Source: Chitinophaga pinensis | Lineage (GTDB): Bacteria; Bacteroidota; Bacteroidia; UKL13-3 | Reading direction: 5' to 3' | Assembly: GCA_945875195.1 (NCBI GenBank) | Contig: CAMCJW010000001.1 | Location: 1 to 60,534, forward strand | Length of the DNA: 60,534 nucleotides | Shown: positions 12,423 to 54,869 of the stretch, piece by piece | How the letters are laid out: the number at the start of each line of letters is the position of its first letter | How positions within the stretch are numbered: the first letter of the stretch is position 1 | Notes under the pieces: generated by a model | Told to the model about the DNA's origin: nothing | Databases searched by the model: none | The model's input: the letters and a program-made list of their open reading frames with translations, nothing else | Program-made: the position numbers and the translations under genes

Positions 12423-12602
12423 AAGATTGTTGAGATGGTAATATATGCACAATATACCATTCACTATTTAAAATCAAAACACTCAGCTAAAATAATTAGT
12501 CGGCCTAAGTAATTTATGAATTTGCCGTTCTTTAGAATTCATATTTTTTTATACATTCGTGAAGCTATTAATTATACAAAAATCATAGACTAAAAATCAA
12601 AC

Positions 12603-14012: not shown

Positions 14013-14013
14013 C

Positions 14014-15093
14014 ATGAGAAAGTTTATTTCGTTTTTGATAATTGCGCTCTGTTTAGTTATTTATTATGGCAGCAATAGCGCAAAAATAACAGAACAATAC
14101 ACTGATTATAGAGAAAGGAGAACGCTGTTAGGTTCAGACAAAGTAGGCTATGGAGGATTGTATGGCATGTGTTACCTTTCTGATTACCGTTACCCTTTTT
14201 CTTATGATATAAAAGCAGCTAACGACACCCTAGAAAAAAACATTAACCTTTATCTTTTTTCGGATAGCTATTTGTATTATAGGGTTACCTCAAAGCATTT
14301 TTGTAATACAGATAAGCTATATAAAATGAAGTGGTTTGAAACCGAAACATTTTTAAAACAGGAGGCTCTTGATATAACAAAAAAAAATGTACTTGTATTT
14401 GAGATGACTGAAAGGTATGTGAGAATATTACTTGATAATTTTGATGGCGCAGCAAACATGTTGTCTATTGGCAAAAAAGCTGCCGAGGCGGCTCCCAATA
14501 ACGAAAACACAAATTCATACAATTTATTGGAGAAGTTACAAACCCCATTAATCAATCCTAATATCAATTCTAATTTGGAATTAAATTTGTTTGATTACAA
14601 ATTTTTTAGGCCATTAAAAGAGTTAAAAGCTAATTTAAATTATTACGTGTTTAATAGATTAAATGATGAAGTTTTTGTTGACACCGCATACAAACAATTG
14701 TATTATAAACCCACCGTTTCTGGAGAGCAGAAAATGAACGCATTTTACCCCGTTGATTCAGTAGAATTCAAAATTATTTGTACCACCATCAATAAACTAT
14801 ATGATTTGTATCAATCGAAAGGTTTTGATGAAATATATTTGGCCATCATACCCAACCCGGTTACAATTGTAAATCCAAATTTAGGCAACTATAATAACCT
14901 AATTCCTACTATCAATAAGGTTGACACTTTAAGAATGAAAATATTGGATATTTATAGCATTTTTAAACAGCATCCTTCTGCCTATTACGCTAAAAGCGAT
15001 TCACATTGGAATTCTGCTGGACTCCAGCTTTGGTTGGATGAGTTTAACAAAAGATTGAAGGTAATTTCAAAAAAAAATAGCAAAACTTCGTAA
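14014..15093 (+). CDS. AlgJ/AlgX-like SGNH-fold acyltransferase partner (DxHW motif)
   Basis: N-terminal anchor, FSDSY Ser block near the N-terminus and SDSHWNSAG near the C-terminus. ATG lies 2 nt after the MBOAT stop; the track start 13969 is inside the MBOAT gene. Confidence 0.55.
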   Translation: MRKFISFLIIALCLVIYYGSNSAKITEQYTDYRERRTLLGSDKVGYGGLYGMCYLSDYRYPFSYDIKAANDTLEKNINLYLFSDSYLYYRVTSKHFCNTDKLYKMKWFETETFLKQEALDITKKNVLVFEMTERYVRILLDNFDGAANMLSIGKKAAEAAPNNENTNSYNLLEKLQTPLINPNINSNLELNLFDYKFFRPLKELKANLNYYVFNRLNDEVFVDTAYKQLYYKPTVSGEQKMNAFYPVDSVEFKIICTTINKLYDLYQSKGFDEIYLAIIPNPVTIVNPNLGNYNNLIPTINKVDTLRMKILDIYSIFKQHPSAYYAKSDSHWNSAGLQLWLDEFNKRLKVISKKNSKTS

Positions 15094-15186
15094 TTTTTTC
15101 TTGCCAAGAATCATCGCTACCATTGGCATTTTTAAAGCAGTTTTTGCCTGTAAAAGTGCTTTTTTTCAAAAAATGATAACAAAAGT

Positions 15187-16119
15187 TTGTCAGATAGGTC
15201 GCGACCATTATATTGCACGGAATATCATATTAATTTAACATTGGAAAAACCAAAAGGAAAGCTCATCTCCATAGGTGGAGCAGAGGATAAAGGAACAGAT
15301 TTGGAGCAGGGATTTGTGCAAAGAAATAGGCTTAATTTTTTTGAATTAGGGATCCTAAAGCGCATAGTTGTTGAGGTTGGAGGAACAGAAAAGCGCATTG
15401 AAGTAATTACTACAGCATCTTCTATTCCAGAAGAAGTGGGTGAAAATTATGTAGATGCGTTTGGTAAAATTGGCTGTAATAACGTTGGTATTATGCCCAT
15501 TCGCAATAGGCAAGATGCAGCTCAAGAAGAATATATTAATAGGATCAAAACGTGCAACGGTGTTATGTTTAGCGGTGGCGATCAATTAAGATTAACCAGC
15601 ATTTTTGGAGGAACAGAAATTTATCAAATTTTACATGATAGGTTAATCGCCGAAGAAAATTTTGTAATCGCAGGCACAAGCGCAGGTGCAATGGCCATGA
15701 GCAATACCATGATTTACCAAGGCAAAAGTGATTTAGCCCATTTAAAAGGTGAAGTAAAAATAACAACAGGTTTAGCTTTTGTTGCCAATGTAATTATCGA
15801 CTCACATTTTGATAAGCGCGGGCGTTTTAATCGCTTAGCGCAAGCAGTTGCGAGTAACCCTCAATGCACAGGAATTGGCCTTGGCGAAGATACTGGTGTA
15901 GTAATTACCGAAGGAAACCAATTAGAAGTAGTAGGCAGCGGTGCAGTGGTAATTGTAGATGGCAAAGACATTCGTCATTCAAATATTACAGATATTTCTG
16001 AAGGTGCGCCCATTTCTATTGAAGGATTAAAAGTAAATATTCTTGTAAAGGGCAATGGTTATTTACTTAAAGAAAGAAAGTTTCAAGAAGTTGCTTTAGT
16101 AGAAGAGGTTCACCAATAA
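15187..16119 (+). CDS. cphB: Cyanophycinase (peptidase S51)
   Basis: LISIGGAEDKG, FSGGDQLRL and nucleophile block AGTSAGAMAM. No signal peptide, so intracellular type. Only TTG starts are available; in-frame TTG 15241 would give a canonical-length N-terminus. Confidence 0.85.
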   Translation: MSDRSRPLYCTEYHINLTLEKPKGKLISIGGAEDKGTDLEQGFVQRNRLNFFELGILKRIVVEVGGTEKRIEVITTASSIPEEVGENYVDAFGKIGCNNVGIMPIRNRQDAAQEEYINRIKTCNGVMFSGGDQLRLTSIFGGTEIYQILHDRLIAEENFVIAGTSAGAMAMSNTMIYQGKSDLAHLKGEVKITTGLAFVANVIIDSHFDKRGRFNRLAQAVASNPQCTGIGLGEDTGVVITEGNQLEVVGSGAVVIVDGKDIRHSNITDISEGAPISIEGLKVNILVKGNGYLLKERKFQEVALVEEVHQ

Positions 16120-16130
16120 CAAAATAACCA

Positions 16131-16295
16131 ATGCATATTTTAAGTGATTCTGATATTGAAATAAGAGAAGAATTCCAATCCTTTATTGCCGAAATTCCAG
16201 AACTCCCGGGTTGTTCTGCAAGTGGAATTACAGCGCATGAAGCCATTGAAAATTTGAAGTTTGCCTTAACAGAATTAGGTATTAACTATTCTTGA
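16131..16295 (+). CDS. HicB/UPF0150-like small protein (54 aa), absent from the ORF track
   Basis: Hand translation: MHILSDSDIEIREEFQSFIAEIPELPGCSASGITAHEAIENLKFALTELGINYS. The xPELPGCxxxGxTxxEAxxN core is typical of HicB N-terminal-like domains. Confidence 0.55.
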   Translation: MHILSDSDIEIREEFQSFIAEIPELPGCSASGITAHEAIENLKFALTELGINYS

Positions 16296-16340
16296 TAATT
16301 AAATACCTTTTATTATCTTTGGATTGCCAATCATTTACGC

Positions 16341-16559
16341 ATGAAGAAGTCAATATCCTTATTCTTCCTCTCCCCTTTACTTTGCTATGCAAGCGGAATA
16401 ACAGGTTCTGCTGGCAATGAGCTGCTATATTTATACCTCATCCTTCTTGGCATTTTAGGCGTTTTTTTCGGTTTGAACCTAGCCATTAAGTTTGTTTGGC
16501 GTAAATACAAAAACTGGAAGTTTCAAAAGCAATACCCAGAGTTGGATGGGTTGTTTTAG
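16341..16559 (+). CDS. Small membrane protein, hypothetical
   Basis: 72 aa with a signal-like N-terminus and one further hydrophobic helix. No recognisable family. Confidence 0.3.
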   Translation: MKKSISLFFLSPLLCYASGITGSAGNELLYLYLILLGILGVFFGLNLAIKFVWRKYKNWKFQKQYPELDGLF

Positions 16560-17149
16560 GAATGAAGCCAATTCATTCTTGGAGACCCTGCAAGCCTTTC
16601 AAAATCTCGGTCATATTTGTTTAAACGGTGTATTTTAATGGCCTGCGCTATTTTTTCAACCCAAACCATACCTGCAGAAGAATAATAACCCTTGTTTATT
16701 TTCATTAGCCACTCCATGTAAGCCATATTTCCTTTCATAGAGGTGTAATATCCTTTTCGCTTTATGATGGTGCAAAAGTGGCCAAAAGAGGCCTCATCCG
16801 ACCTATAGCTTCTATACATTGAATGGTAATTAATGCCTTGACTAGGTAGGTGATTTTTGCCTTTAACACCAAAATGATTTTTTAGCATTCTGGTGTTTAA
16901 CCCCGATCCATGTCCGGATTCAATTAGCGCAATTCCTAAGATTACACTTGCTGGAATACCTGTTTGATCCGACAAACTTTGCGCTAAAGGAGCATAGTTA
17001 ACAATATATGAGTTGGCAGATTGGTTTCTGGTAAAGGCATATAGCGGAGCTATAAAACAGAACAGGGAAATGGTTATCCTTAGTTTTGCATTTTTCCAGT
17101 ACGGGTAAATACTAAGATTGTTGCGATATGTGGTTTCGGTTTGTTTCAA
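16556..17149 (-). CDS. Glucosaminidase-domain protein (GH73-like peptidoglycan hydrolase)
   Basis: SVILGIALIESGHGSG catalytic-Glu block and later YYSSAG.VWVEKI region. Confidence 0.7.
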   Translation of the reverse strand: MKQTETTYRNNLSIYPYWKNAKLRITISLFCFIAPLYAFTRNQSANSYIVNYAPLAQSLSDQTGIPASVILGIALIESGHGSGLNTRMLKNHFGVKGKNHLPSQGINYHSMYRSYRSDEASFGHFCTIIKRKGYYTSMKGNMAYMEWLMKINKGYYSSAGMVWVEKIAQAIKIHRLNKYDRDFERLAGSPRMNWLHS

Positions 17150-17374
17150 TTCTTAAAGAATTAATAGCACCGTTTCTACCCACAAAGTAAAATGAAAATT
17201 AGCCTAAGGCAATGCACAACCTTTTACAACTTGTCTCATAAAGTATTCAAAATGAATTTACTACAAATTTGTCGCACTCAGTGTAATGGTAAATTGGGTA
17301 TGGCTTGTATGCCATAAAGGAAGTTATTAGGGGATTTTAAAACCTAAAAAATATTCAAATTATAGCCCAAATAA

Positions 17375-18313
17375 TTATTTATAGATGGCCACTTCTGGGT
17401 TTTTACCTTCAAATTGCCAAGCTCTATACATACCTTCTGAGTTAAATGGCAACTCAATATTGCCAAAATAATCTATGGCAATTAGCCCTCCCTCACCACC
17501 AAATTTTACCAATTTGTCTTTAACAACAAAATCACAAGCCTCCTTTAAACTCATGCCTTTGTATTCTATTAAACACGAAATATCATAAGCTACAACTGCA
17601 CGTATAAAAAATTCACCATGACCAGTGCAAGAGATTGCACAAGTTTTATTGTTGGCATAAGTTCCTGCGCCAATCATTGGTGTATCGCCAATACGCCCAA
17701 AGCGCTTATTTGTCATGCCGCCAGTGCTTGTTGCCGCAGCCAGGTTTCCTTGTTTATCTAGCGCTACTGCTCCAACAGTGCCAAACTTCTTTTCGCCTTG
17801 TTCTGTTTTATCTGTATGATCCAATTGATAGGTATCACTATCCTTTACATCTTGCCATTGCTTATACCTTTCAACAGTATAAAAATAGGCATCATCTTCA
17901 AAAGTTAATCCGCACTTTTTGGCAAATAATTCTGCTTCACTACCAGCTAAAAAAACATGTCCAGATTTTTCCTTGATCAAACGTGCTAATGATACAGGAT
18001 TCTTTATGTTACTCACACCACTAACAGCACCAGCCTCTAGGTTCAAACCGCACATAATAGAAGCATCCATTTCATGTGTGCCTTTATTGGTAAAAACAGC
18101 ACCCTTACCAGCATTAAATAAAGGAAAGTTCTCTAAAGATATTACAGCTGCTTCTACAGCATCCAAACTGCTTCCACCGTTTTTAAGGATGTTTGAACCA
18201 ATTGATAATGCCTCAGATAAACCCAAACGATAATTGGCTTCCTTTTCTGGGGTCATTAAATAAGGCAATATGGTTCCAGCGCCACCATGAATGGCCATTG
18301 AAAAATTATTCAT
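17375..18313 (-). CDS. iaaA: Isoaspartyl peptidase / L-asparaginase (Ntn hydrolase)
   Basis: MAIHGGAG start, autoprocessing site FGTVGAVALD, and GGMTNKRFGRIGDTPMIGAG block. Confidence 0.85.
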   Translation of the reverse strand: MNNFSMAIHGGAGTILPYLMTPEKEANYRLGLSEALSIGSNILKNGGSSLDAVEAAVISLENFPLFNAGKGAVFTNKGTHEMDASIMCGLNLEAGAVSGVSNIKNPVSLARLIKEKSGHVFLAGSEAELFAKKCGLTFEDDAYFYTVERYKQWQDVKDSDTYQLDHTDKTEQGEKKFGTVGAVALDKQGNLAAATSTGGMTNKRFGRIGDTPMIGAGTYANNKTCAISCTGHGEFFIRAVVAYDISCLIEYKGMSLKEACDFVVKDKLVKFGGEGGLIAIDYFGNIELPFNSEGMYRAWQFEGKNPEVAIYK

Positions 18314-18334: not shown

Positions 18335-19099
18335 CTACCACTCGGCAGTAGGATCGTATCTAAAAACCTCACTCATTTCTTCCACCAAAGGAGAAAGATG
18401 ATTGGTGTGATTTCCAACTCTTCCGCCATATACTGGCTTCCAGGTTTCGGAACTAGGAATGCTAATACCTGCCTTTATAATATAAGGGGTAATGTTTGCT
18501 AACCATTTTTCTTGCAAGGTTTCTTCACCTTCAAAAATGCCCTCACCAATTAATAAGTCTTCATTTTTGCTTGGTTCAAACATACCTAAAGCATAATTCC
18601 AAGCTTCATTGAATGCTGCCTGCATGCGGTTATGGCTCTCCTCGTTGGCTGAACCTAGTTTTACAAACCAAGTATTGCCATGGAACACATGGTATTTTAA
18701 CTCACCTTTTACCTTGCGGGCAACTTTTGCCAAAGGTTCATAACTCGAATTTGCTAGCGCTTCAAATCTTAGTTGATCGGCATGGTCGAATAAAAAATGA
18801 CGCACCAAGCTAAAATCGTATTCGCCATTTGGCAATTCTACTAACTGTGAATTATGAAATTGATTTGCATTGCGCATAAACGCAACGGTATCTGGCTCTT
18901 GCTCGCCAAGCTCATTTAACAAAACGTATAATGCTTGAGCTTGCCCAATTTTATCTTGGGCCATGCTGCTAAATGAAATATCCTCTTCTAAAATTGGACC
19001 TAAACCTGTCCATTCACTATTGCGGTGACCAATTATTAAAAGGTCATCTGCCATTTTATAAAGCAATTCTTTGATTGCATCTGTTGTATTTTGATTCAT
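18335..19099 (-). CDS. paaC: 1,2-phenylacetyl-CoA epoxidase subunit C
   Basis: MADDLLIIGHRNSEWTGLGPILEEDISFSSMAQDKIGQAQALY matches the PaaC signature region. Confidence 0.8.
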   Translation of the reverse strand: MNQNTTDAIKELLYKMADDLLIIGHRNSEWTGLGPILEEDISFSSMAQDKIGQAQALYVLLNELGEQEPDTVAFMRNANQFHNSQLVELPNGEYDFSLVRHFLFDHADQLRFEALANSSYEPLAKVARKVKGELKYHVFHGNTWFVKLGSANEESHNRMQAAFNEAWNYALGMFEPSKNEDLLIGEGIFEGEETLQEKWLANITPYIIKAGISIPSSETWKPVYGGRVGNHTNHLSPLVEEMSEVFRYDPTAEW

Positions 19100-19153
19100 T
19101 TAATGTGCATTTACGCTGTTAAGAAACTCCAAAGTTGAAAAGATAAAAAAGTA

Positions 19154-19519
19154 CTAAAATCCCTTTTTGAATTTGTTAATTTTATCCATCACTTTATAAC
19201 CTCCTGCTTCGCGATAATTTTTCTCTGGAACAGTATCATAAATATCAGAATCTTCATAATCAGAAACATAAACATCGCGTGTTTTAACAACCCAAATATT
19301 TACGCTTAAACCTCTTCTGCCAAACTGTTCTTTGCCAAAAATAAAGGCCATTTCAGCATTTGGCGCGTGCACAATTCCAACATGCATGTGTTGATCACCA
19401 CGTTTTTTCTGGTGAAAAACTTCATAGGTTTCCCATTGATCCAAATCTCTTAACGGCTCAATGGTGTTTTCAAGATTTATTTCTGCACGAGTAATGCGTG
19501 GGTCGAGTGATTTAATCAT
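19154..19519 (-). CDS. paaB: 1,2-phenylacetyl-CoA epoxidase subunit B
   Basis: 121 aa. WETYEVFHQKKRGDQHMHVGIVHAPNAEMA block is typical of PaaB. Confidence 0.85.
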   Translation of the reverse strand: MIKSLDPRITRAEINLENTIEPLRDLDQWETYEVFHQKKRGDQHMHVGIVHAPNAEMAFIFGKEQFGRRGLSVNIWVVKTRDVYVSDYEDSDIYDTVPEKNYREAGGYKVMDKINKFKKGF

Positions 19520-19529
19520 GATGAATAGT

Positions 19530-20516
19530 TTATGCTAAAGGAACAATGTATTTAGATTCGGTTGTGTTTAAGGCTTCTCTCACCCAACGTCCGCGTTCTT
19601 CAGCATTTCTGCGAACTGCCAAACGCTCAGCATTACAAGGGCCACCACCGTTTATTACACGTTTAAACTCTTCCCAATCTGGCTCAGTATATTCCCACTT
19701 TCCTTCTGCGTTTTTCTTCAAATTTTCATCGGGAAGCGTTAAACCTAAATCCCAAATTTTAGGAACATACATGTTTAAAAATTGCTGACGCATATCATCA
19801 TTAGTAGCCATCTTAACTTTCCAACGCATTAAAATTTCTGTGTGGTTAGAAATTTTATCAGAAGGGCCAAAGAAATGCATGATTGGAGGCCACCAGCGGG
19901 TTAAAGCTGCTTGTACCATTTCACGTTGTTTAGGCGTACCTGTTGCCAAGGTTACAACATTGTCATGACCATATTTTAAATGAAAAGATTCTTCGGTACA
20001 AATGCGATCTAAGGCGCGGCAATAAGGACCATAACTGCCTTTTGCATTTGCTACTTGATTGATAATAGCACCGGCATCAATAAGCCAAGCAATGATACAC
20101 GCATCAGCCCAAGTAAAAGCAGGGTAATTAAACACATTAGAGTACTTAGATTTTCCAGTGATTAAATCATTGATCATGGCCTCTCTGCTTTTGCCTAATG
20201 TTTCAGCAGCACTATATAATAATTGTGCATGACCAACCTCATCTTGAACCTTTGCCATTAACGCCAATTTGCGTCTAAATCCTGGTGCACGAGTGATCCA
20301 AGTTCCTTCTGGCAAAGCACCAATAATTTCACTATGGCCATGCTGTTCAATCATGCGCACAAGTTGTTTGCGGTACTCTTTAGGCATCCAATCCATTGGT
20401 TCAATTTTTTCACCACGAGCAATTCGCGCTTCAAACTCTTCAAGTTTCTTAGGGTCCTCTCCAGCAGTCATTGCTGTAGCCTTGTCGTTTGGATCAATGT
20501 AAGCATTTCCGTACAT
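19530..20516 (-). CDS. paaA: 1,2-phenylacetyl-CoA epoxidase catalytic subunit A
   Basis: FEARIARGEKIEPMDWMPKEYRKQL, HGHSEIIG and VQDEVGHAQLLY di-iron ligand blocks. Confidence 0.9.
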   Translation of the reverse strand: MYGNAYIDPNDKATAMTAGEDPKKLEEFEARIARGEKIEPMDWMPKEYRKQLVRMIEQHGHSEIIGALPEGTWITRAPGFRRKLALMAKVQDEVGHAQLLYSAAETLGKSREAMINDLITGKSKYSNVFNYPAFTWADACIIAWLIDAGAIINQVANAKGSYGPYCRALDRICTEESFHLKYGHDNVVTLATGTPKQREMVQAALTRWWPPIMHFFGPSDKISNHTEILMRWKVKMATNDDMRQQFLNMYVPKIWDLGLTLPDENLKKNAEGKWEYTEPDWEEFKRVINGGGPCNAERLAVRRNAEERGRWVREALNTTESKYIVPLA

Positions 20517-34020: not shown

Positions 34021-35514
34021 TCAGGCTTCCCTTTCAATTATTATTTCTGAAACAATCTTGCCAGAGCTCAGGCACAAAGGAATGCCGCCTCCAGGGTGAA
34101 CACTTCCGCCACAGAAATACAAACCCTTTATTTTACTAGAAAAATTAGCATGTCTTAAAAAAGCCGCATACCTATTGTTACTTGCATTTCCATACAATGA
34201 CCCTCCAAAACTAGATGTTTTACTTTCTATTAACCTAGGATCTAAAACCGATTCGCTTTCAATTAATGGTTCAATTGGCTGCTTCAATAATCTACTCAAC
34301 TTAGCCAAAATATTAACTCTTGCCCTTGCAATGTAATCGTCCCAATCTTGGCCGGTATTGGCTGGAGCATTTATCATTACAAACCAATTTTCGCAATTTA
34401 GAGGAGCATCTGAGGGCAAATATTTGCTGCTAATATTTACATAAACAGTAGGATCGTTATAAAGCTCTTTTCTTTTAAAAATATAATTGAACTCTTCTTC
34501 ATAATTTGAACTGAAGAAAATGTTGTGCAAATCCATTTCACTAAATTCTTTTTTAATTCCCCAATAAAAAATTATTGCCGAAGACGATTTCTCTTGGGCC
34601 AAGAGCTTTTCTGGGGCGGTTTGATCAGAAAGTAGCTTGCGATAAGTAGGATGAACATCCATATTGGAAACAACCAAATCAGCTAATATAATTTGTTCAC
34701 CTACAACAATTCCTTTTACGCTTCCACTATCCACTTTAATGGCATTAACCTTTTTATTAAAATGAAAATTTACACCCAATTTTTCAGCTGCAGCCATCAA
34801 AGAATTAGTAATTTGAATCATTCCATGCTTAGGAAAAAAGGTACCAATACCGTGTTCTAAATGCGGAATCATATTCAAAATTGCTGGAGCTTCAAATGGA
34901 TTAGAGCCATTATAGGTGGCAAATCGATTAAAAAATTGAACCAAATGCGGGTTTTTTAAATCGCGCTCATTTTGTTGATTCATGGTCTCAAACAAATTCA
35001 GTGAAGGTAACGCCAATATTCCTTTAAGGGCTTTTTTACTAAAATAAGTCTTCTTTAAGTGTAAACTTGATTCTAAAAAAAGTGGAGCCGTTGATTCATA
35101 TTTTTTTTGGGCAATGCTTAAATAATTAAATACCATTTGAGGGTCGACTCCAAGTTTCATTTGTAGCTCCTCTGCAAATAGCTTCTGATCGTGATAGGCA
35201 ACCAACCTAAGTCCATCTTCGTAAAAATAATGACAACCTTTTTCTATTTTTATTACCTGAAAATCCTGCGCAGGTATTTTTGCCAACGACAATAATTCTT
35301 GAACCAAGTGAGGTAAGGTAAACAGTGAAGGGCCTGCATCGAAACGATAATTACCTTGCGCAAAATCACTTAGTTTGCCACCAGGATATTCATTGGATTC
35401 AAAAATATCAACTGCAAAACCAGCATGCGCTAAACGAATGGCTGTAGCTAAACCTCCTACTCCAGCTCCTATAATGATTGCGTTCTTTTTCAAATTCTCT
35501 AGTATTTTGCACAA
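34021..35514 (-). CDS. Phytoene-desaturase-family carotenoid desaturase, CrtD-like
   Basis: IIGAGVGGLATAIRLA FAD fold, FNRFATYNGSNPFEAPA block, C-terminal GGSVHPGGGIP. Confidence 0.7.
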   Translation of the reverse strand: MCKILENLKKNAIIIGAGVGGLATAIRLAHAGFAVDIFESNEYPGGKLSDFAQGNYRFDAGPSLFTLPHLVQELLSLAKIPAQDFQVIKIEKGCHYFYEDGLRLVAYHDQKLFAEELQMKLGVDPQMVFNYLSIAQKKYESTAPLFLESSLHLKKTYFSKKALKGILALPSLNLFETMNQQNERDLKNPHLVQFFNRFATYNGSNPFEAPAILNMIPHLEHGIGTFFPKHGMIQITNSLMAAAEKLGVNFHFNKKVNAIKVDSGSVKGIVVGEQIILADLVVSNMDVHPTYRKLLSDQTAPEKLLAQEKSSSAIIFYWGIKKEFSEMDLHNIFFSSNYEEEFNYIFKRKELYNDPTVYVNISSKYLPSDAPLNCENWFVMINAPANTGQDWDDYIARARVNILAKLSRLLKQPIEPLIESESVLDPRLIESKTSSFGGSLYGNASNNRYAAFLRHANFSSKIKGLYFCGGSVHPGGGIPLCLSSGKIVSEIIIEREA

Positions 35515-38164: not shown

Positions 38165-39649
38165 ATGGGAAGAAAGAAAGCAATAGTAATTGGGTCTGGT
38201 GTGGCAGGATTATCTGCAGCAAGTTACCTTGCCAAAGAAGGTTATTCGGTGACCATTCTTGAGAAAAATGAGCAAACTGGTGGAAGGGCAAGAAAATTTA
38301 GTGCCCAAGGATTTACCTTTGATATGGGCCCAAGTTGGTATTGGATGCCCGATGTGTTTGAAAAATATTACCAGGATTTTGGCTATACCACCTCAGATTT
38401 TTACGAATTAATTCGCTTAAGTCCTAGTTACCGGGTTATTTCCAAAAGTGGGGAAGCAATTGATATTCCTGCAAACATGGATGAACTTGAGGCCTTGTTT
38501 GAAAAATTTGAGCCTGGCTCAGCAACCAGATTACGTGGGTTTTTAAGTGAGGCAAAATACAAATATGAAGTAGGAATAAACGACCTTGTTTATAAACCTA
38601 GTTTAAGCCTACTTGAATTTGCTGATGTTCGTTTGCTTAAAGGTCTGCTAAAAATGGATGTTTTGAGTAATATGCGCAAGCACATTGCTAGTATTGTAAG
38701 TAACCCCTTTTTACAAGAACTTCTTGAGTTTCCGGTACTGTTTTTGGGCGCATTACCACAAAACACACCTGCATTATATAGCTTAATGAATTACGCAGAC
38801 ATGCAGCTAGGTACTTGGTATCCTCAGGGCGGCATGCATCTTTTTATACAGGCTTTTCAAACAATTGCTGAAAAATTAGGGGTTACTATATTGTTGAACC
38901 AAGAGGTTATTTCGGTTGATACGAAACAAGGGAGTATAATTGCTGTTAATACTACAGATCAAACTTATTTGGCTGATGTGGTTATCAATGCCAGTGATTA
39001 CCACCACATGGATCAGGTGATACTAAGTCCTGAAAATCGCAGCTATTCGCCATCCTATTGGGCGAAAAGAAAGATGGCTCCTTCTTGTTTATTGTATTAT
39101 GTTGGGGTTAACAAAAAAATAACAAATCTATTACACCATAACCTATTTTTTGATACCGACTTCAACTTACATTCTAAAGAAATTTACACCACCCCAAGCT
39201 GGCCAACAAAACCACTATTTTATGCTTCAGCTCCAAGCAAAACAGATCCTTCTGTAGCGCCAGATGGTTGTGAAAACTTGTTTCTTTTAATTCCTATTGC
39301 ACCCGGATTAGAAGGCGACAATGAGAAGTTACGAGACAAATATTTTGAACTAATTATTAAAAGGTTGGAGCAGCAAACTGGAGAATCTATTTTGCCTTTT
39401 GTAATCTATAAACGCAGTTATAGTGTGAATGATTTTAAGGAAGATTACCATGCCTTTAAAGGAAATGCCTATGGATTGGCTAATACCTTGGATCAAACCG
39501 CTATATTAAAGCCTAGCTTAAAAAGCAAAAAACTTAAAAATTTATTTTATGCAGGTCAATTAACGGTACCCGGACCTGGTGTTCCACCCAGCATAATTAG
39601 TGGAAAGGTTGCAGCCATGCAAGTGGTCAAAGAATTTGGTAACGGTTAA
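38165..39649 (+). CDS. crtI: Phytoene desaturase
   Basis: IVIGSGVAGLSAASYLAKEG..GGRARKFSAQGFTFDMGPSW and GTWYPQGGM blocks, collinear with Pantoea-type CrtI. Confidence 0.85.
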   Translation: MGRKKAIVIGSGVAGLSAASYLAKEGYSVTILEKNEQTGGRARKFSAQGFTFDMGPSWYWMPDVFEKYYQDFGYTTSDFYELIRLSPSYRVISKSGEAIDIPANMDELEALFEKFEPGSATRLRGFLSEAKYKYEVGINDLVYKPSLSLLEFADVRLLKGLLKMDVLSNMRKHIASIVSNPFLQELLEFPVLFLGALPQNTPALYSLMNYADMQLGTWYPQGGMHLFIQAFQTIAEKLGVTILLNQEVISVDTKQGSIIAVNTTDQTYLADVVINASDYHHMDQVILSPENRSYSPSYWAKRKMAPSCLLYYVGVNKKITNLLHHNLFFDTDFNLHSKEIYTTPSWPTKPLFYASAPSKTDPSVAPDGCENLFLLIPIAPGLEGDNEKLRDKYFELIIKRLEQQTGESILPFVIYKRSYSVNDFKEDYHAFKGNAYGLANTLDQTAILKPSLKSKKLKNLFYAGQLTVPGPGVPPSIISGKVAAMQVVKEFGNG

Positions 39650-39761: not shown

Positions 39762-40598
39762 ATGAAATCAATCTTCGACAAAATCTCAATTAAAAGCAGC
39801 AGGTTGGTAACTAAAACTTATAGTACATCCTTTTCATTGGGAATTAGTTTCTTGTCGAAACGGTTTCAAGATCCCATTTACGCAGTGTATGGTTTTGTTA
39901 GGTTGGCCGATGAAATTGTTGATTCTTTTCATGGTTATCCAAAAAGACAATTGTTGGAAGAATTCAAGGAGGAAACGTATAAATCTATTAACAGGGGAAT
40001 TAGCACTAATCTAATTCTAAATAGCTTCCAGCAAGTTGTGCATGAATACAACATTGACCATTCTAGTATTGAAACTTTTTTGAAAAGTATGGAAATGGAT
40101 TTAATGTTAAACACATACACACAAGATGGTTATGAAAACTACATTTTAGGATCTGCCGAAGTAGTTGGCTTAATGTGTTTAAGGGTTTTTGTTGAAGGAG
40201 ATAACCAGCAATATGAAAAGCTTAAACCCTATGCAATGAAATTAGGTTCAGCTTTTCAAAAAATAAATTTTTTACGCGATTTCAGAGCTGATAAAGAAGA
40301 TTTGGGAAGGATTTACTTTCCTCAAATGAAGGATAATGATTTCACAGAGGAAGTGAAAAAAGAAATTGAACTAGACATTCTTAAAGACTTTGAATCTGGC
40401 TATCAAGGTATTAAACTCCTGCCAAAAGACACTCGATTTGGTGTTTACGTAGCTTATATTTATTACTCTAGGTTATTAAATAAAATAACCCAGTTACCCG
40501 CCCAAAAAATAATAGAGGAGAGAATTCGAATAAGTAATAAGCAAAAATATGCTTTGTTTTTTGGCTCGTATTTGAGGCATAGCCTTAATATGTTATAG
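39762..40598 (+). CDS. crtB: Phytoene synthase
   Basis: SFSLGISFL, YGFVRLADEIVD and QKINFLRDFRADKEDLGRIYFP Asp-rich blocks. Confidence 0.9.
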   Translation: MKSIFDKISIKSSRLVTKTYSTSFSLGISFLSKRFQDPIYAVYGFVRLADEIVDSFHGYPKRQLLEEFKEETYKSINRGISTNLILNSFQQVVHEYNIDHSSIETFLKSMEMDLMLNTYTQDGYENYILGSAEVVGLMCLRVFVEGDNQQYEKLKPYAMKLGSAFQKINFLRDFRADKEDLGRIYFPQMKDNDFTEEVKKEIELDILKDFESGYQGIKLLPKDTRFGVYVAYIYYSRLLNKITQLPAQKIIEERIRISNKQKYALFFGSYLRHSLNML

Positions 40599-41092
40599 TG
40601 AACAGCATGCTTTATTTGTTTTCTTGCCTGATCCTATTAACCCCTATAAATGATAAAGATTTACTTACTATGCGCGCTGAATATTACCAAGCCATCAATA
40701 GCGAGGAAATTGCAATTAAGTTAGACAAAGAATTAGGCGCAATTAGCAATAAAACGTTTTTACAAATGGGCTATTTTGGTGCAAATAAAATGATACTTGC
40801 CAAATTTGCCTTTTGGCCTAATACCAAATATGCTTTGTTTGTTGATGGTAAAGCAATTTTGGAAGAGGCAATTAAAAACGATTCAAAAAATATTGAATTG
40901 ATTTTCCTGCGTTATCCAGTTCAACTAAACGCACCATCCATATTAGATTATAATCAAAATGTGGCAAGCGATAAAAAAATACTCGTTAACGAAGTAAAAT
41001 CAATAAAAGACAAAGATTTGAAAACTCGAATTTTGGCGTTTCTATTAAGTGATGGTAAATTAACGGAAGCGGAAAGGAAAGCTATTCAATGA
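40598..41092 (+). CDS. Hypothetical protein embedded in the crtB-idi operon
   Basis: 164 codons from GTG 40598 (or ATG 40607). The start touches the crtB stop and the stop overlaps the idi ATG (ATGA at 41089-41092). Hydrophobic N-terminus, predicted helical, no family recognised. Confidence 0.6.
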   Translation: MNSMLYLFSCLILLTPINDKDLLTMRAEYYQAINSEEIAIKLDKELGAISNKTFLQMGYFGANKMILAKFAFWPNTKYALFVDGKAILEEAIKNDSKNIELIFLRYPVQLNAPSILDYNQNVASDKKILVNEVKSIKDKDLKTRILAFLLSDGKLTEAERKAIQ

Positions 41093-48769: not shown

Positions 48770-49486
48770 TTAGTCTTCGCTTCTACTTAAAGTGTAGATA
48801 ACTAAGCCAAATCCAATTTTATTAATTGCGTCTGCAATATTATATACAATATCCATTGCATGTGAAGCAGCAGCTGGATCAGATACCAATTGAATTCCAA
48901 GCAAACCACCTGGTGTGCCTAAAATGTAACCCAATGGATAAATTGCCCATCCTACTAAAACAAACCAACCCAATACTCTAGTTGCTTTTGCAACTTGAAC
49001 ACCAGCTGTTTGAGCCAAATTAGCCACTTCTCCAAACCAAACTAGGTAAACGATGTAGAAGTAAGCAGCACCAGAAATAACACCCCAAAGTACGCTGTTT
49101 CCTCTGTCTATTGTTTCACCAAAATAGCCAGTTACAAGCATTACCAAAGAAGCAAAAATCAATCTCCAAAGCAAGCCAATTTTGGCGCCTGCCTTTTTGG
49201 TGATAAGATAAAACTCAACACACATCAACGGCACAGTAAGAATCCAATCAACATATCTAAAGAATGTTGGTGAATCTCCTGTTTCTAAATTGTAACTCCT
49301 CATGTAGTAGTAGTGTACTGCTGCAATGAAAGTAATCAAACCAGAAACTAAAACAGAAGTTCTCCATTTTTGAGAAGTTGTACTTAACTCAAAAAAGAAA
49401 AACACAGAAGCGGCCATCATGGCCATTGTTCCGATAAAAAACGTGAACGCCACGTAATTATCACTTGCAATTTTTAAATGTTCCAT
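48770..49486 (-). CDS. Proteorhodopsin-type light-driven proton pump (DTE motif)
   Basis: 238 aa, 7 TM helices. RYVDWILTVPLMCVEF gives D80/T84/E91 (GPR D97/T101/E108) and M88 at the tuning site. H58, D219 and Schiff-base K223 (NIADAINKIGFG) are present. Confidence 0.9.
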   Translation of the reverse strand: MEHLKIASDNYVAFTFFIGTMAMMAASVFFFFELSTTSQKWRTSVLVSGLITFIAAVHYYYMRSYNLETGDSPTFFRYVDWILTVPLMCVEFYLITKKAGAKIGLLWRLIFASLVMLVTGYFGETIDRGNSVLWGVISGAAYFYIVYLVWFGEVANLAQTAGVQVAKATRVLGWFVLVGWAIYPLGYILGTPGGLLGIQLVSDPAAASHAMDIVYNIADAINKIGFGLVIYTLSRSED

Positions 49487-49594
49487 AAATATATTTATGT
49501 TTTTTGCCTACTCTTAAGGATTTTCGGATTCTCCCCGTTTTTTTACTTGGTATCTGGATTCCAATACACCAAAAGAACATCATATCTGTAAATA

Positions 49595-49637
49595 AGTTTT
49601 GTCATATTTTATATTTTTAGAAAATTATGACAAAACT
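49595..49637. repeat. Perfect 12-bp inverted repeat between the cyclase-dioxygenase gene and the rhodopsin gene
   Basis: AGTTTTGTCATA (49595-49606) and TATGACAAAACT (49626-49637), separated by a 19-nt AT-only loop. It begins 11 nt after the upstream stop codon. Confidence 0.8.
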
Positions 49638-49648
49638 ATGAGACTGTC

Positions 49649-51694
49649 CTATTTTTTAGAATCGTAAAAAAACTGATTTCCAATCAATTGATAAAACTTA
49701 TTCATAGCTATAATATGCGGAAAACTGATGCAAGAAATGAAAATGAAAAAAGTTTTCATCCATTCGTCTAGGGTAGATTTCGAAGTAAAGCTGTTAAAAT
49801 AATAAAGTAAAACCCCAAAAAGTATAAAGGCGGCAAGGTTAAATGGTAATGCTTTTACAAAAACTTGCTTGTTATTTAAGTGTAAACCCTTTTTTATGTG
49901 TGTCCAGCCATTTAAACTGTGTTGCCCAATAAAATATATTCCAAATGAAGTAATAAGGGGCAACTGCACACAAACCAATAAAATTGTTGCGCTTATGAAC
50001 ATGGCTAATCTACGTTCCCAATATGCCCATAAAATTGATATTATGCCTAGCACCATGGTTATCGCCATACTTATCTTGTTTGTAAGCGGTATGGTATTTG
50101 CTTTCATGTTACCTAAAATTTGATTTGTTTCTGGTAAATGACCCAATAATAAAATGCCTAAAAGAAGTATTCCCCATACCCAATTATTTAGGCTTCTCTT
50201 TTTTTTAAACTGCCATTCATGCATATCGGCCTCCCCAAAATGCCAAGCAGAGTATAATAGAAAAAAGAGCAATGCCAAGTTGGGAACAAATAGCCATAGC
50301 AATAATAACGCAAATGCCTTGCTCAAATAGCTTATAACAAATGTAAGCCTTATGTTTTGTTTTTGTTTCTCCTTTACCAATAGGTGATCAACTGCGCCGT
50401 GGGGTATTCCTAGAAAAAACAAGCCTGTTGTAAAAATGCCTATTTGTATGGGTTCAAATATTGATGGCGTAATTATATGGATTGCCCAAAGTACTAGGGT
50501 AAATAGGAATAAAAAGATTGGAGCAGCCAAATATTGAAAGCGCACTTTTGCGTCTAAATGCCATGCTATTAAAAATGGTTTAATGGGTAGGCTAATCAAT
50601 ATTCTTATGTCTTGCGATAGGGATGTTTTTTCATCTAAAAACTGCAAAACATTTATCAACTTATTCTTGTCAAATAAGGCTTTAAAAATGCCACTGCCTG
50701 CTTCTGGATGGTTATTTAATATGAGTAACAACAACCTATCATAAAATCGAAACCTTTTTGGACTCTCTTGTTTTATTGGTGATATCGCCATTTGCATACC
50801 TTCTGCCAATTTTTCCGCGTGTTTAAACATGTTTTTAAAGGCATAACCTGTGCTAGGTTTTATCGCCCCATTTCTTCCTCCAATTGCAATCAAACCTGGC
50901 AGCGTATTTTCCGAAATTCTTAAGGTGCTCATTGGTATGCAGCCGGTTTCAATGTGTGATACGGTGCAGGTGCCAAATCGTTTTGTTATGTATTCATTTA
51001 ATATAGGTTCAGCGCTAATAGGGTCAAGGATTTCTTTGCCGAATCTTGTTAATTCCACTAAGATTTTGCCAGAATCGTAAGGTAAAACATAAATGAATTG
51101 GGTATAACCTTGTTGCTCTATCCTAAAATCCATTAAATCGATGGCCTGTTTAGTTTCTTCTTTATTTTCTGGTTGTACCACAAATCCTATAAACGACTGT
51201 TTTAGATGAACCTCGTTTTTTTTAGCTGTTAAATAGGTTGGTGGTCGGCTATCGAAAACTTGGGCAGATTGCCAAACTCCTTCCTCTGTTATAACTTTAA
51301 GCCCTTCATTTATTGCCTCAATACTTACTACATTTGTTTGTATTCTTTGGATGTGATAATTTTCCAAGATTCTTCGCATTTCATGGTATACATCAATACT
51401 AGCTATTTGCATGTATTCCAGAGGTTTGATGGGTTCTAGTGCTCTTCCATTTACGCACATTTCTTCCCATTTCTGACTTATTAAATGCTTACAATTTATA
51501 CTTATTTCATCTGTAGGTTTTGCCCAAAAACAGTATGTTTTGTCGTTGTGAATCTTGGAATCTGGATCAATCACCAAAATTTTTTTATTTTTTAACAAGC
51601 CTCTTCGCTCCATGCTCATTAGCAAAAGCGTTGCGGAAGCTCCTGCACCTGCAAACAAATAATCAAATTTTGGGTATGTTGTGCTTTCCAACAT
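49649..51694 (-). CDS. Fusion protein: lycopene beta-cyclase (CrtY-type, N-terminal) plus Brp/Blh beta-carotene 15,15'-dioxygenase (C-terminal)
   Basis: One uninterrupted 681-codon ORF. N-terminus has FDYLFAGAGASATLLL (FAD fold) and FIYVLPYDSGKILVELTRF. The C-terminal polytopic part has GIPHGAVDH, SAWHFGEAD and GQHSLNGWTH His blocks. Confidence 0.85.
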   Translation of the reverse strand: MLESTTYPKFDYLFAGAGASATLLLMSMERRGLLKNKKILVIDPDSKIHNDKTYCFWAKPTDEISINCKHLISQKWEEMCVNGRALEPIKPLEYMQIASIDVYHEMRRILENYHIQRIQTNVVSIEAINEGLKVITEEGVWQSAQVFDSRPPTYLTAKKNEVHLKQSFIGFVVQPENKEETKQAIDLMDFRIEQQGYTQFIYVLPYDSGKILVELTRFGKEILDPISAEPILNEYITKRFGTCTVSHIETGCIPMSTLRISENTLPGLIAIGGRNGAIKPSTGYAFKNMFKHAEKLAEGMQMAISPIKQESPKRFRFYDRLLLLILNNHPEAGSGIFKALFDKNKLINVLQFLDEKTSLSQDIRILISLPIKPFLIAWHLDAKVRFQYLAAPIFLFLFTLVLWAIHIITPSIFEPIQIGIFTTGLFFLGIPHGAVDHLLVKEKQKQNIRLTFVISYLSKAFALLLLWLFVPNLALLFFLLYSAWHFGEADMHEWQFKKKRSLNNWVWGILLLGILLLGHLPETNQILGNMKANTIPLTNKISMAITMVLGIISILWAYWERRLAMFISATILLVCVQLPLITSFGIYFIGQHSLNGWTHIKKGLHLNNKQVFVKALPFNLAAFILFGVLLYYFNSFTSKSTLDEWMKTFFIFISCISFPHIIAMNKFYQLIGNQFFYDSKK

Positions 51695-51848: not shown

Positions 51849-52637
51849 TTAGGTGCTGGCAGTTGTTCTTTCTGTCAATTGTCGGTAAACACCGTTCCAC
51901 AATTCAATTCTTTGTTTCAAGGAATGTATAACTGATTCTTCTGCTTCTTTCCAATATTGCTCGTTGTCATTACAAAGATTGGCCGTCATTTGTAAGGCAA
52001 GGTTACTGTGGTGGTCACCATCTACTTCGATGTGCCTTTCTATATAATATTTAAAGACAGAGATATCATCAGGAAAGTTCTTGTGCATTTCATTTATTAT
52101 GGAGATAAACATACCTGGGATTAAATCTTCACGGCCAAAGGTAAAAATGGCTGATTGCAAATACGCTTTATCACTCTCAATAACTTTAAAAGTAAAATCA
52201 ACAAAATCTTGTGCTTCCTTTGGAGTGCCTGAGGATAAATAAGCGGAGTTGAAGTCGCTGGTATTTTTCAATACGCTTGTAAAAACTTCAATTTTAGTTG
52301 TATCAGCTCCACATTGTTTCATGGCGTCTAAGTATAATTCAAAATGGCTTTTCCTAACACCATTTAGGTCTACGTCTGATTCTTCACCTACAACTATTTC
52401 GTTAATAAGATACCTTGTGTCTGCAGTTCCTTTGGGAAACCAAGGAACAGAGGTACAAGTTAAGTTACGCTGTAACGTTTTTAATAACGACATAAAGTCC
52501 CAAACTGCGTAAACGTGGAATTGCATAAATACTTTTAAGTCGTCTATATCTTTAATTGCTGAATAAACTTTATGATTAATAATCTCTTGTCTTAAGGGTT
52601 CAATTGCTTTTTTAATTTTTTCAATTTGAGTACTCAT
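51849..52637 (-). CDS. Heme-oxygenase-like fold protein (probable DUF3050 family)
   Basis: 262 aa, helical. FMQFHVYAVWDFMSLLKTLQ block and IERHIEVDGDHH carboxylate/His cluster. Confidence 0.55.
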   Translation of the reverse strand: MSTQIEKIKKAIEPLRQEIINHKVYSAIKDIDDLKVFMQFHVYAVWDFMSLLKTLQRNLTCTSVPWFPKGTADTRYLINEIVVGEESDVDLNGVRKSHFELYLDAMKQCGADTTKIEVFTSVLKNTSDFNSAYLSSGTPKEAQDFVDFTFKVIESDKAYLQSAIFTFGREDLIPGMFISIINEMHKNFPDDISVFKYYIERHIEVDGDHHSNLALQMTANLCNDNEQYWKEAEESVIHSLKQRIELWNGVYRQLTERTTAST

Positions 52638-53416: not shown

Positions 53417-53446
53417 TTTGTTTTTTATTAAATTCCAATACTTTTG
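53417..53446 (+). promoter_or_regulatory. Bacteroidota-type promoter for metK (TTTG ... TAnnTTTG)
   Basis: TTTG at 53417-53420 and TACTTTTG at 53439-53446, 18 nt apart. This places the transcript start at about 53452, the foot of the structured leader. Confidence 0.45.
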
Positions 53447-53452
53447 CACTGC

Positions 53453-53577
53453 ATTAAGAATTCTGCACAGGTGTAGGATGCCAACCGGGAAGAACACCAC
53501 GGTGGTAAAACAATGCGGACTTTCTTGTCAAATATAGTTCCTAGATATCTGCGGAGAGTCCTCATAGTTTGCTTAAT
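53453..53577 (+). promoter_or_regulatory. Structured metK 5' leader, candidate (SAM-responsive?) riboswitch of unassigned class
   Basis: Mutually exclusive helices. TCTGCA 53462-67 or TCTGCG 53548-53 can each pair with TGCGGA 53514-19. Other pairs: AAGAA 53456-60/TTCTT 53522-26, ATTAAG 53453-58/CTTAAT 53572-77, GGTGT 53470-74/ACACC 53494-98, GGACT 53517-21/AGTCC 53557-61. Confidence 0.35.
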
Positions 53578-53615: not shown

Positions 53616-54869
53616 ATGGCTTATTTATTCACGTCAGAGTCCGTTAGTGAAGGACACCCAGACAAAGTTGCCGATCAAATATCGGATGCATTAATTGATA
53701 ATTTCCTGGCATTCGACCCAGAGTCGAAGGTGGCTTGTGAAACCCTTGTTACTACCGGTTTAGTAGTACTTGCTGGTGAAGTTAAATCTAAGGCATACTT
53801 AGATGTACAAGAAATTGCCCGTGGTGTTATTGGCAAAATTGGTTATACCAAAAGCGAATACATGTTTGAGGCCAATTCATGTGGAATTATCTCTGCCATC
53901 CATGAGCAATCTGCCGATATCAACCAAGGTGTTGATCGCAAGAAAAAGCAAGATCAAGGTGCCGGCGACCAAGGTATGATGTTTGGTTATGCAACCAACG
54001 AAACTGCAGACTACATGCCTTTGGCCTTAGACTTAGCCCATAAAATATTAATTGAGCTTGCTGCCCTCCGTCGCGAGAACAAAGCAATTAAATACTTGCG
54101 CCCAGATGCTAAAAGCCAGGTTACTTTAGAGTATGATGACAACAACAACCCAGTTCGCATTGAGGCTATTGTGCTTTCAACTCAGCACGATGATTTTGAT
54201 AAAGAGCCTAAAATGTTGGCTAAAATCAAAGAGGATATCGTTAAGATTTTAATCCCTCGCGTAAAAACCAAATACAAAAAATTCGCCCATTTGTTTAATG
54301 ATAAAATTACTTACCATATCAATCCTACAGGTAAGTTTGTAATTGGTGGTCCACATGGCGATACCGGTTTAACTGGTCGTAAGATTATTGTTGATACATA
54401 CGGTGGTAAAGGTGCACACGGTGGTGGAGCTTTCTCTGGTAAAGATCCTTCAAAAGTTGACCGTTCTGCTGCTTATGCAACCCGTCACATTGCTAAAAAC
54501 CTAGTTGCTGCTGGTGTTTGTACTGAAGTATTGGTACAAGTATCTTATGCTATTGGTGTAAAAGATCCAATGGGTATTTTCATCGAAACTTATGGTACTT
54601 CTAAAGTAAATATGACTGATGGTCAAATTGCTAAGGTGGTAGAAAAATTGTTCGATATGACTCCTTATGGTATCGAAACTCGTTTGAAATTGCGTAATCC
54701 TATCTATAGCGAAACTGCTGCTTACGGGCACATGGGTCGTAAAAATGAAATTGTTACCAAGAAGTTTAAAGGACCAGATGGTAAAGACCACTCATTTAAA
54801 GTTGAGTTATTTACTTGGGAAAAATTAGACATGGTTGATGCTGTTAAAAAAGCATTTAAAATCAAATAG
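53616..54869 (+). CDS. metK: S-adenosylmethionine synthase
   Basis: [33 protein letters not shown] and [19 protein letters not shown] blocks. Confidence 0.95.

Follow-up and report, generated by a model that had tools for sequence, protein, structure and literature searches.

A lycopene cyclase/Blh fusion gene next to a proteorhodopsin gene in Bacteroidota: a widespread, putative single-chain retinal synthase

The DNA analysed here is a stretch of 60,534 nucleotides (nt) from contig CAMCJW010000001.1 of assembly GCA_945875195.1, assigned to Chitinophaga pinensis, which we refer to as the window. On its minus strand lies a single open reading frame (ORF) that joins a CrtY-type lycopene cyclase domain to a beta-carotene 15,15'-dioxygenase domain of the Brp/Blh family, and a proteorhodopsin gene follows on the same strand. 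The ORF begins with ATG and encodes 681 amino acids (aa) before its stop codon, with zero internal stops. Homology to cyclases spans approximately residues 9-378 and homology to Brp/Blh proteins approximately residues 390-675; the linker between them separates the end of the cyclase homology from the first membrane helix of the Blh half, which hydropathy places at residue 390. The parts of the locus are as follows.

49649..51694, minus strand: CrtY-type cyclase/Blh fusion (ORF listing, Pfam, NCBIfam and family alignments)
50540..51694, minus strand: cyclase half, residues 1-385 (PF05834, alignment with Pantoea CrtY, AlphaFold2 and Foldseek, omega)
50528..50569, minus strand: junction or linker, approximately residues 376-389 (hydropathy and the stop/start positions of split relatives)
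49652..50527, minus strand: Blh half, residues 390-681 (PF15461, TIGR03753, invariant residues, AlphaFold2, omega)
48770..49486, minus strand: proteorhodopsin, 238 aa (PF01036 and residue motifs)

An earlier note, made from the sequence of this stretch, had described one uninterrupted ORF of 681 aa with a flavin adenine dinucleotide (FAD)-type CrtY domain and a Brp/Blh domain that keeps its histidine blocks, followed after 162 nt by a proteorhodopsin on the same strand. This description is borne out by the ORF listing, by a profile hidden Markov model scan in which both Pfam domains score above cut-off, by the residue conservation described below, and by a spacer (49487-49648) of exactly 162 nt. 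Taken one by one, both halves are under purifying selection (omega 0.11-0.18 for the cyclase and 0.13-0.32 for the Blh half), and an AlphaFold2 model of the whole 681-aa chain reaches a mean predicted local distance difference test score (pLDDT) of 82 and a predicted template modelling score (pTM) of 0.73.

The cyclase half matches the Pfam family Lycopene_cycl (PF05834) with residues 13-374 against profile positions 3-375 of 380 (E 8e-36; 124 bits versus a gathering threshold of 23.4). The cyclase models of NCBIfam are likewise matched from end to end, all under their cut-offs (TIGR01789 for CrtY, 45 versus 215 bits; NF045687 for CrtL, 37 versus 500 bits; TIGR01790 for the carotene-cyclase subfamily, 83 versus 209 bits). 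Because these scores lie so far below the cut-offs, the cyclase half is, judged by its sequence, a divergent branch of the family and no equivalog of characterised CrtY or CrtL. Full-length matches to cyclases of Streptomyces and Persicobacter show 26-30% identity. Like the annotated CrtY of Pantoea, an FAD-dependent lycopene beta-cyclase, it belongs to the same Pfam family and predicted fold class and has the same residues in the FAD-binding and catalytic blocks, but it differs in its low identity over the whole aligned length (24-26%), in falling under the CrtY equivalog cut-off and in being tethered to the membrane through the fusion. The residues common to both proteins are D11, G16, G18, T53, F56, LMD189, F200, Y202, P205, E214, T216, E249, G251, P254 and T282-G-Y; the equivalent of E214 in Pantoea CrtY is a glutamate that we take to be catalytic. 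Alignments of 18 and of 51 fusions agree on a set of invariant motifs, namely the dinucleotide (FAD) motif G16-x-G18-A-S, N50-D-K-T-Y-C-F-W, L187-M-D, F200-x-Y-x-L-P...L-V-E214-L-T-R-F-G and G272-G-R-x-G-A-x-K-P-S-T-G-Y. A Foldseek comparison of the modelled N-terminal half points to a flavoprotein fold of the PHBH/glutathione-reductase-2 type, as expected for the family, with geranylgeranyl reductases (3oz2, template modelling score 0.62 normalised to target) as the top PDB structural matches and tetracycline destructases and PHBH-type monooxygenases among the others. A PDB sequence search with the family profile gave marginal matches to thioredoxin reductases only, and no solved CrtY or Blh for comparison.

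The Blh half is recognised by Pfam BCD (PF15461; residues 425-667, E 2.6e-38, 133 bits versus a cut-off of 28) and by TIGR03753 for Brp/Blh (151.5 bits versus a cut-off of 95.25). H432, D436, H485, D490, H519, H592 and H660 are invariant in both fusion alignments, and in the larger one, of 51 fusions, conservation of H437 and H599 is 90% or higher. The half is polytopic, with approximately 8 hydrophobic segments from residue 390 onwards by hydropathy and approximately 9 long helices over residues 387-675 in the AlphaFold2 model; none of the 50 best PDB matches that Foldseek returned for the whole-chain model fell on it. It resembles the characterised 66A03 Blh of an uncultured marine bacterium in Pfam and TIGRFAM family, histidine pattern and multi-helix membrane architecture, but the latter stands alone while the Blh of the window bears a 385-residue N-terminal cyclase. 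In 66A03 Blh, nine membrane helices surround a cavity in which His-21, 78, 188 and 256, proposed to bind iron, are coplanar (bioRxiv 10.64898/2026.08.06.743266), and the spacing of H432/H485/H592/H660 is 53/107/68 compared to 57/110/68 for these four residues. Blh cleaves beta- and gamma-carotene, but not lycopene (bioRxiv 10.64898/2026.08.06.743266), so a cyclase is needed directly upstream in the pathway, and this requirement fits the persistent pairing of cyclase and Blh.

The protein encoded at 48770..49486 matches Pfam Bac_rhodopsin (PF01036) with E 2.6e-40. It shows the DTE proton-pump motif (D80/T84/E91), has M88 as its spectral-tuning residue and K223 as the lysine of the Schiff base (motif RYVDWILTVPLMCVE), and is 42% identical to green proteorhodopsin. 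A rhodopsin gene lies beside the fusion at every locus examined, down to fusions of 28-30% identity, in three arrangements: the fusion comes first in the window and in the related loci L001, L002, L016 and L017, the rhodopsin comes first in L003-L010, L014 and L015, and the two genes are divergent in L013. Neither crtE nor crtB nor crtI was found in the neighbourhoods of the fusion-carrying loci examined. Rhodopsin and cyclase-Blh fusion are a conserved two-gene module.

The two genes of this module differ greatly in divergence: compared to L003-L009, L013 and L016, the rhodopsin of the window is 86-97% identical where the fusions are 44-55% identical and the flanks unrelated. For lineages with fusions of 48-55% identity, the rhodopsin value is 93-97%. 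Horizontal transfer of the rhodopsin alone, which values such as approximately 93% for rhodopsin against approximately 50% for the fusion and the synonymous divergence (dS) had first suggested, was dropped, as rhodopsin identity rises monotonically with fusion identity across all pairs. This tracking makes co-inheritance under very unequal constraint the simpler reading. In close pairs the dS of rhodopsin equals that of the fusion; in distant pairs it is lower, with a same-residue codon identity of the rhodopsin of 0.59-0.68 versus an expected value of approximately 0.47 and a saturated fusion. The residual discrepancy at synonymous sites could reflect extreme constraint, constraint at the codon level or exchange of rhodopsins between lineages. 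The next gene upstream of the fusion (51849-52637, likewise on the minus strand) encodes a DUF3050 protein (E 8e-99) that weakly resembles haem-oxygenase-like iron redox enzymes. Its position is kept in L001, and L002 has a gene of 787 aa between it and the fusion; it is absent from more distant loci and therefore probably does not belong to the module.

The architecture is far from confined to the window. We searched a database of 5.8 billion proteins at the level of 90%-identity clusters, of which the best 120 were considered, and scanned 1.84 billion 50%-identity representatives with HMMER, parsing domains in the best 150 of 4560 matches. All of the 120 clusters (120/120; sources NCBI, JGI, ENA and Logan) hold proteins of 663-689 aa with both Pfam domains, among them an identical protein from another assembly (P0001) and a cluster at 88% identity. 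Two independent metagenome-assembled genomes (MAGs) from lakes, L001 and L002, also have this ORF without interruption, at 95% and 88% identity and in a conserved syntenic setting. In the best 150 of the 4560 representatives, domain parsing yielded 96 complete fusions and approximately 20 pieces of fusions truncated at the ends of contigs; 34 proteins had the cyclase domain alone and 6 the Blh domain alone. Identity of these fusions to the window protein ranges from 55% down to 31%, which argues that the architecture is old. Named carriers belong to Bacteroidia, Saprospiraceae, Schleiferiaceae and Cryomorphaceae, that is, to freshwater and marine Bacteroidota, apart from one MAG labelled Pseudomonadota. 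The fused form makes up most of a large and old clade; it is widespread and automatically annotated, not rare. The rarity that the earlier note had implied did not hold up in this domain-architecture search, with at least 96 complete fusions in the best 150 of 4560. The source annotations read "lycopene beta-cyclase" or "Brp/Blh family", never both, and since the proteins are named after one half, surveys that score crtY and blh apart can miscount retinal-capable rhodopsin carriers. The MAG labelled Pseudomonadota (GCA_026390435.1; L014/L015) holds the most distant fusion examined, at 28-31% identity and beside a rhodopsin of 252 aa; this is either a transfer of the module beyond Bacteroidota or a mis-binned or mislabelled contig.

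The sequence lends good support to a functional reading that we consider likely: the ORF would be the gene of a naturally occurring retinal synthase with two activities, converting lycopene via beta-carotene to retinal on one chain and feeding the adjacent proteorhodopsin. In the mechanism that we propose, an N-terminal, cytoplasm-facing, FAD-dependent cyclase would be tied by a linker of approximately 10 residues to helix 1 of the Blh half. CrtB and CrtI would make lycopene, the tethered flavoprotein half would cyclise it to beta-carotene at the membrane surface, and the Blh half, with its approximately nine helices and an iron putatively held by H432, H485, H592 and H660, would cleave beta-carotene into two all-trans-retinal molecules. 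Retinal would then load the putatively green-tuned, proton-pumping proteorhodopsin of the DTE type from the adjacent gene. What we infer are the two enzyme activities, FAD and iron as cofactors, the orientation of the protein in the membrane and whatever kinetic advantage the fusion may bring. Several points weigh against this interpretation. The cyclase half is divergent (approximately 24% identity to Pantoea CrtY, NCBIfam scores far under cut-off), and a choice between monocyclase and bicyclase, or even an altered activity, is not readable from its sequence. The histidines are mapped onto 66A03 Blh through their spacing and the context of their motifs rather than by aligning the two proteins directly; crtE, for a polyprenyl or geranylgeranyl diphosphate synthase, was not found among the window ORFs of at least 120 aa; and the activities of all members of the fusion family are predicted.

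Whether the covalent link itself matters is a separate question on which the split relatives bear. In L020, a rhodopsin gene comes first, then separate genes for a cyclase (402 aa) and a Blh protein (292 aa) with 1 nt between these two; L018 and L023 have a cyclase gene that shares 4 nt (ATGA) with blh; and L024 has the same separate pair. Protein alignment places the stop and start of these split pairs where fused proteins have their linker, near residue 385 of the window protein. Split and fused forms are interleaved in a tree of cyclase domains built by neighbour joining, without support values. These observations suggest a picture in which fused and split states interconvert easily and repeatedly, drawn from a crude tree and from split calls some of which may be sequencing errors. 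The fusion probably arose when a cyclase stop codon overlapping or abutting the start of blh was read through, and probably reverts repeatedly by the same route. With overlapping or abutting split forms interleaved among the fused ones, the covalent link looks dispensable, and substrate channelling as the reason for the fusion is unproven and weakened. Selection may instead act on translational coupling and stoichiometry.

The strongest rival explanation follows from this and accepts the bifunctional protein, but sees its covalent fusion as a near-neutral, reversible outcome of coupled genes with neither a kinetic role nor channelling; what selection keeps would be co-expression, a 1:1 stoichiometry and perhaps a non-covalent complex. 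We rate its chances as only slightly short of even. It gains from the 4-nt overlap or 1-nt gap in the nearest unfused relatives, from the scatter of split forms among fused ones in the cyclase tree and within some 90%-identity clusters, and from the coincidence of break point and linker. It has to contend with the predominance of fused forms in the best 150 of 4560 (96 complete plus approximately 20 partial versus 34 cyclase-only) and with the pTM of the whole-chain AlphaFold2 model, which suggests a defined placement of the halves relative to each other. Moreover, some cyclase-only entries may be artefacts of frameshifts or contig ends that inflate the apparent fission, and the tree is a simple neighbour-joining one. 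The mixed clusters are those of P0224 and P0230, in which full fusions (656-682 aa) occur with separate cyclase-sized and Blh-sized proteins, some of them on one contig; they represent either very recent fission, pseudogenisation or assembly frameshift errors, which bears on any count of fusions and fissions. The stand-alone cyclase of the cultured Persicobacter was considered as a cultured, Blh-coupled counterpart and ruled out, since neither Blh nor rhodopsin lies within 6 kb of it; coupling of cyclase and Blh is therefore not universal.

A second rival concerns the reaction of the N-terminal half and has to be weighed together with the carotenoid genes elsewhere in the window.

38165..39649, plus strand: CrtI phytoene desaturase ("CrtID" equivalog; NF058655, 720 bits versus 640)
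39762..40598, plus strand: CrtB phytoene synthase (SQS_PSY, E 6e-41)
40598-41092, plus strand: ORF of 164 aa without Pfam or NCBIfam match, conserved in L001 and L002
41089..41601, plus strand: Idi, type 1 isopentenyl-diphosphate isomerase (NF002995, 171 versus 127; TIGR02150, 139 versus 106)
34021..35514, minus strand: CrtD 1-hydroxycarotenoid 3,4-desaturase (NF042421, 648 bits versus 500)

CrtI, CrtB and Idi lie 8-10 kb from the fusion on the opposite strand and could supply lycopene, and the CrtD branch competes with the fusion for lycopene-derived substrate. A Pfam scan of the window ORFs of at least 120 aa found no second cyclase, in agreement with what the earlier note had stated; ORFs under 120 aa were covered by a hydropathy listing, not a profile scan, and included no adjacent hydrophobic pair of the kind that a CrtYc/Yd-type cyclase would need. 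Neither crtZ nor cruF is part of the carotenoid gene set of the window. In the absence of crtE, crtZ, cruF and a further cyclase from the window, the hydratase and cyclase of the CrtD branch would have to be encoded elsewhere or be supplied by the fusion. The window holds no complete, contiguous photosystem cluster (crtE, crtI, crtB, crtY and blh with rhodopsin); the fusion alone adjoins the rhodopsin gene.

According to this second rival, the N-terminal half would not be a lycopene beta-bicyclase. It would either act as a monocyclase with gamma-carotene as its product, which Blh would cleave to a single retinal and an acyclic analogue, or be a domain that derives from cyclases but serves another purpose, for instance substrate delivery; beta-carotene would then be the product of another cyclase of the genome. 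The low scores against every NCBIfam cyclase model would fit such a deviation, as would a host CrtD typical of monocyclic or 1-hydroxy carotenoid pathways and the ability of Blh to cleave gamma-carotene. We nevertheless regard it as improbable, given the full-length match to the Pfam family and to the Pantoea, Streptomyces and Persicobacter cyclases and the invariance of the dinucleotide motif, F-x-Y-x-x-P...E-x-T and P-S-T-G-Y in all 51 fusions. The tight and recurrent coupling to blh and rhodopsin is what one would expect of a cyclase that makes the substrate of Blh, and no other cyclase was found among the ORFs of at least 120 aa in the 60 kb. The third rival, that assembly, frameshift or gene calling artificially joined two separate genes, draws on a few relatives called as split genes and is otherwise a general possibility only, and we give it practically no credence and consider it ruled out by the uninterrupted ORF of the window, the identical protein elsewhere, the independent MAGs at 95% and 88% identity, the more than 100 diverse 50%-identity clusters from NCBI, JGI, ENA and Logan with the same architecture, and the conservation of halves and junction without insertions or deletions.

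Compared to known proteorhodopsin photosystems, the two-gene module combines features of different types. Clusters of SAR86-type fosmids and of other Proteobacteria (proteorhodopsin, crtE, crtI, crtB, crtY, blh and idi) share the same two terminal reactions and the adjacent rhodopsin gene. There, crtY and blh are separate genes but operon neighbours and the whole pathway is contiguous, whereas in the window the two are one polypeptide in a two-gene module, the opposite strand carries crtI, crtB and idi at a distance of 8-10 kb, and no crtE was found. The Dokdonia type, said to have been described by Gomez-Consarnau in 2007 and Riedel in 2013, is reportedly a proteorhodopsin-blh pair with the crt genes elsewhere. 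This type shares with the window the affiliation to Bacteroidota, a rhodopsin beside blh, methionine as the tuning residue and a separate locus for the bulk of the carotenoid genes; its crtY reportedly stands alone in the carotenoid cluster, whereas here the cyclase has moved to blh and is fused with it.

We found no description of a natural fusion of a CrtY-type cyclase with Blh in the open-access literature, an absence that is no proof. The earlier note had stated that crtY and blh are separate in characterised proteorhodopsin photosystems, and the literature indeed lists separate genes (PMC10284914), for example in Verrucomicrobiota with crtE, crtI, crtB, crtY and blh next to rhodopsin (PMC10284914). 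A list of natural carotenoid fusions from 2023 has CrtBY, CrtIBY and, as a new one, CrtIB, while CrtY-Blh is not on it (PMC10284914), and the fusion-protein table of Klassen has fungal CrtB-CrtYc/d only. A crtY-blh fusion in Salinibacter was not confirmed; the literature gives crtYcd for Salinibacter, not crtY. Other natural fusions likewise place consecutive enzymes on one chain, such as CrtIB in Verrucomicrobiota, CrtB-CrtYc/d in fungi and CrtIBY in thraustochytrids (PMC10284914, PMC10016063), and CrtI-CrtB-CrtYc/d-Blh of Thecamonas trahens even has a cyclase and Blh on one polypeptide (PMC10016063, PMC10284914). These fusions involve an unrelated membrane cyclase of the CrtYc/d type and are eukaryotic, or they join other steps, whereas the cyclase described here is of the CrtY type. 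The fusion family is abundant in databases, one-sidedly annotated and apparently uncharacterised, and the gene of the window is one more member.

The spacer between the fusion and the rhodopsin gene contains two predicted RNA elements; for the second, positions in related loci are given as well.

49595..49637, minus strand: hairpin with 16-nt arms and an 11-nt loop that starts 11 nt past the fusion stop codon (free energy -12.8 kcal/mol)
49501..49569, minus strand: Rfam RF03081 "DUF805 RNA" cis-regulatory motif, full length (67.3 bits versus a gathering threshold of 51.1)
L001, 12126-12194: RF03081
L002, 7486-7554: RF03081
L005/L006, 9119-9187: RF03081
L007/L008, 9122-9190: RF03081
L016, 12098-12166: RF03081
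L017, 6061-6129: RF03081

The hairpin has a z score of -3.6, with 0/200 shuffles folding as well, and both L001 and L002 have kept it. Possible roles are those of a weak terminator or attenuator separating the enzyme and rhodopsin genes, or of a palindromic protein-binding site or operator (TTGTCATA...TATGACAA). At loci where the rhodopsin comes first, a GC-rich, terminator-like hairpin instead follows the rhodopsin gene. The RF03081 match sits in the 5' leader of the rhodopsin gene and ends 14 nt before its ATG. The motif is named after a different gene family; upstream of rhodopsin it is found in eight related loci whatever the gene order, with a nearly invariant core. At the same leader position, L013 matches DUF805b, a relative from the same clan, below threshold, and loci of the L003 type have no DUF805-type match in the rhodopsin leader. 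The motif is not mentioned in the main text of a 2017 paper. A scan for sigma-70 promoters and terminators around both genes gave counts no higher than in shuffles, with a method unsuited to Bacteroidota promoters.

Taken further, rhodopsin and cyclase-Blh fusion, often with the DUF805-type RNA leader, might form a self-contained cassette that moves as a whole between Bacteroidota of fresh and marine waters and now and then outside them, with the RNA as a dedicated regulator of the rhodopsin and the fusion keeping beta-carotene out of CrtD-type pigments. We put this forward tentatively and think it rather unlikely as a whole. If true, any producer of lycopene could be converted into a photoheterotroph. 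On the reading of the ORF as a bifunctional retinal synthase, two genes would suffice given lycopene, which would lower the barrier to phototrophy by gene transfer, and much of Bacteroidota would package its retinal supply unlike textbook proteorhodopsin operons. A natural, predicted single-chain enzyme from lycopene to retinal would also be a ready part for retinoid production and heterologous rhodopsin expression. Current understanding is not overturned, and the enzymology is inferred. What interest remains, moderate to low, attaches to the widespread, predicted single-chain enzyme, the compact phototrophy module and the conserved RNA leader of the rhodopsin.

Two other regions of the window hold features apart from the module. 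A SAM-I/IV riboswitch (53446-53545, plus strand) precedes the S-adenosylmethionine synthetase gene (53616-54869) and is also present in L001, an ordinary arrangement. A cyanophycin neighbourhood (9777-18313) comprises genes for cyanophycin synthetase (9777-12464), a cyanophycinase-like Peptidase_S51 protein (15187-16119) and an Asparaginase_2 protein of the isoaspartyl-peptidase type (17375-18313), followed by genes for PaaA/B/C-like subunits of a phenylacetate-CoA oxygenase (18335-20516).

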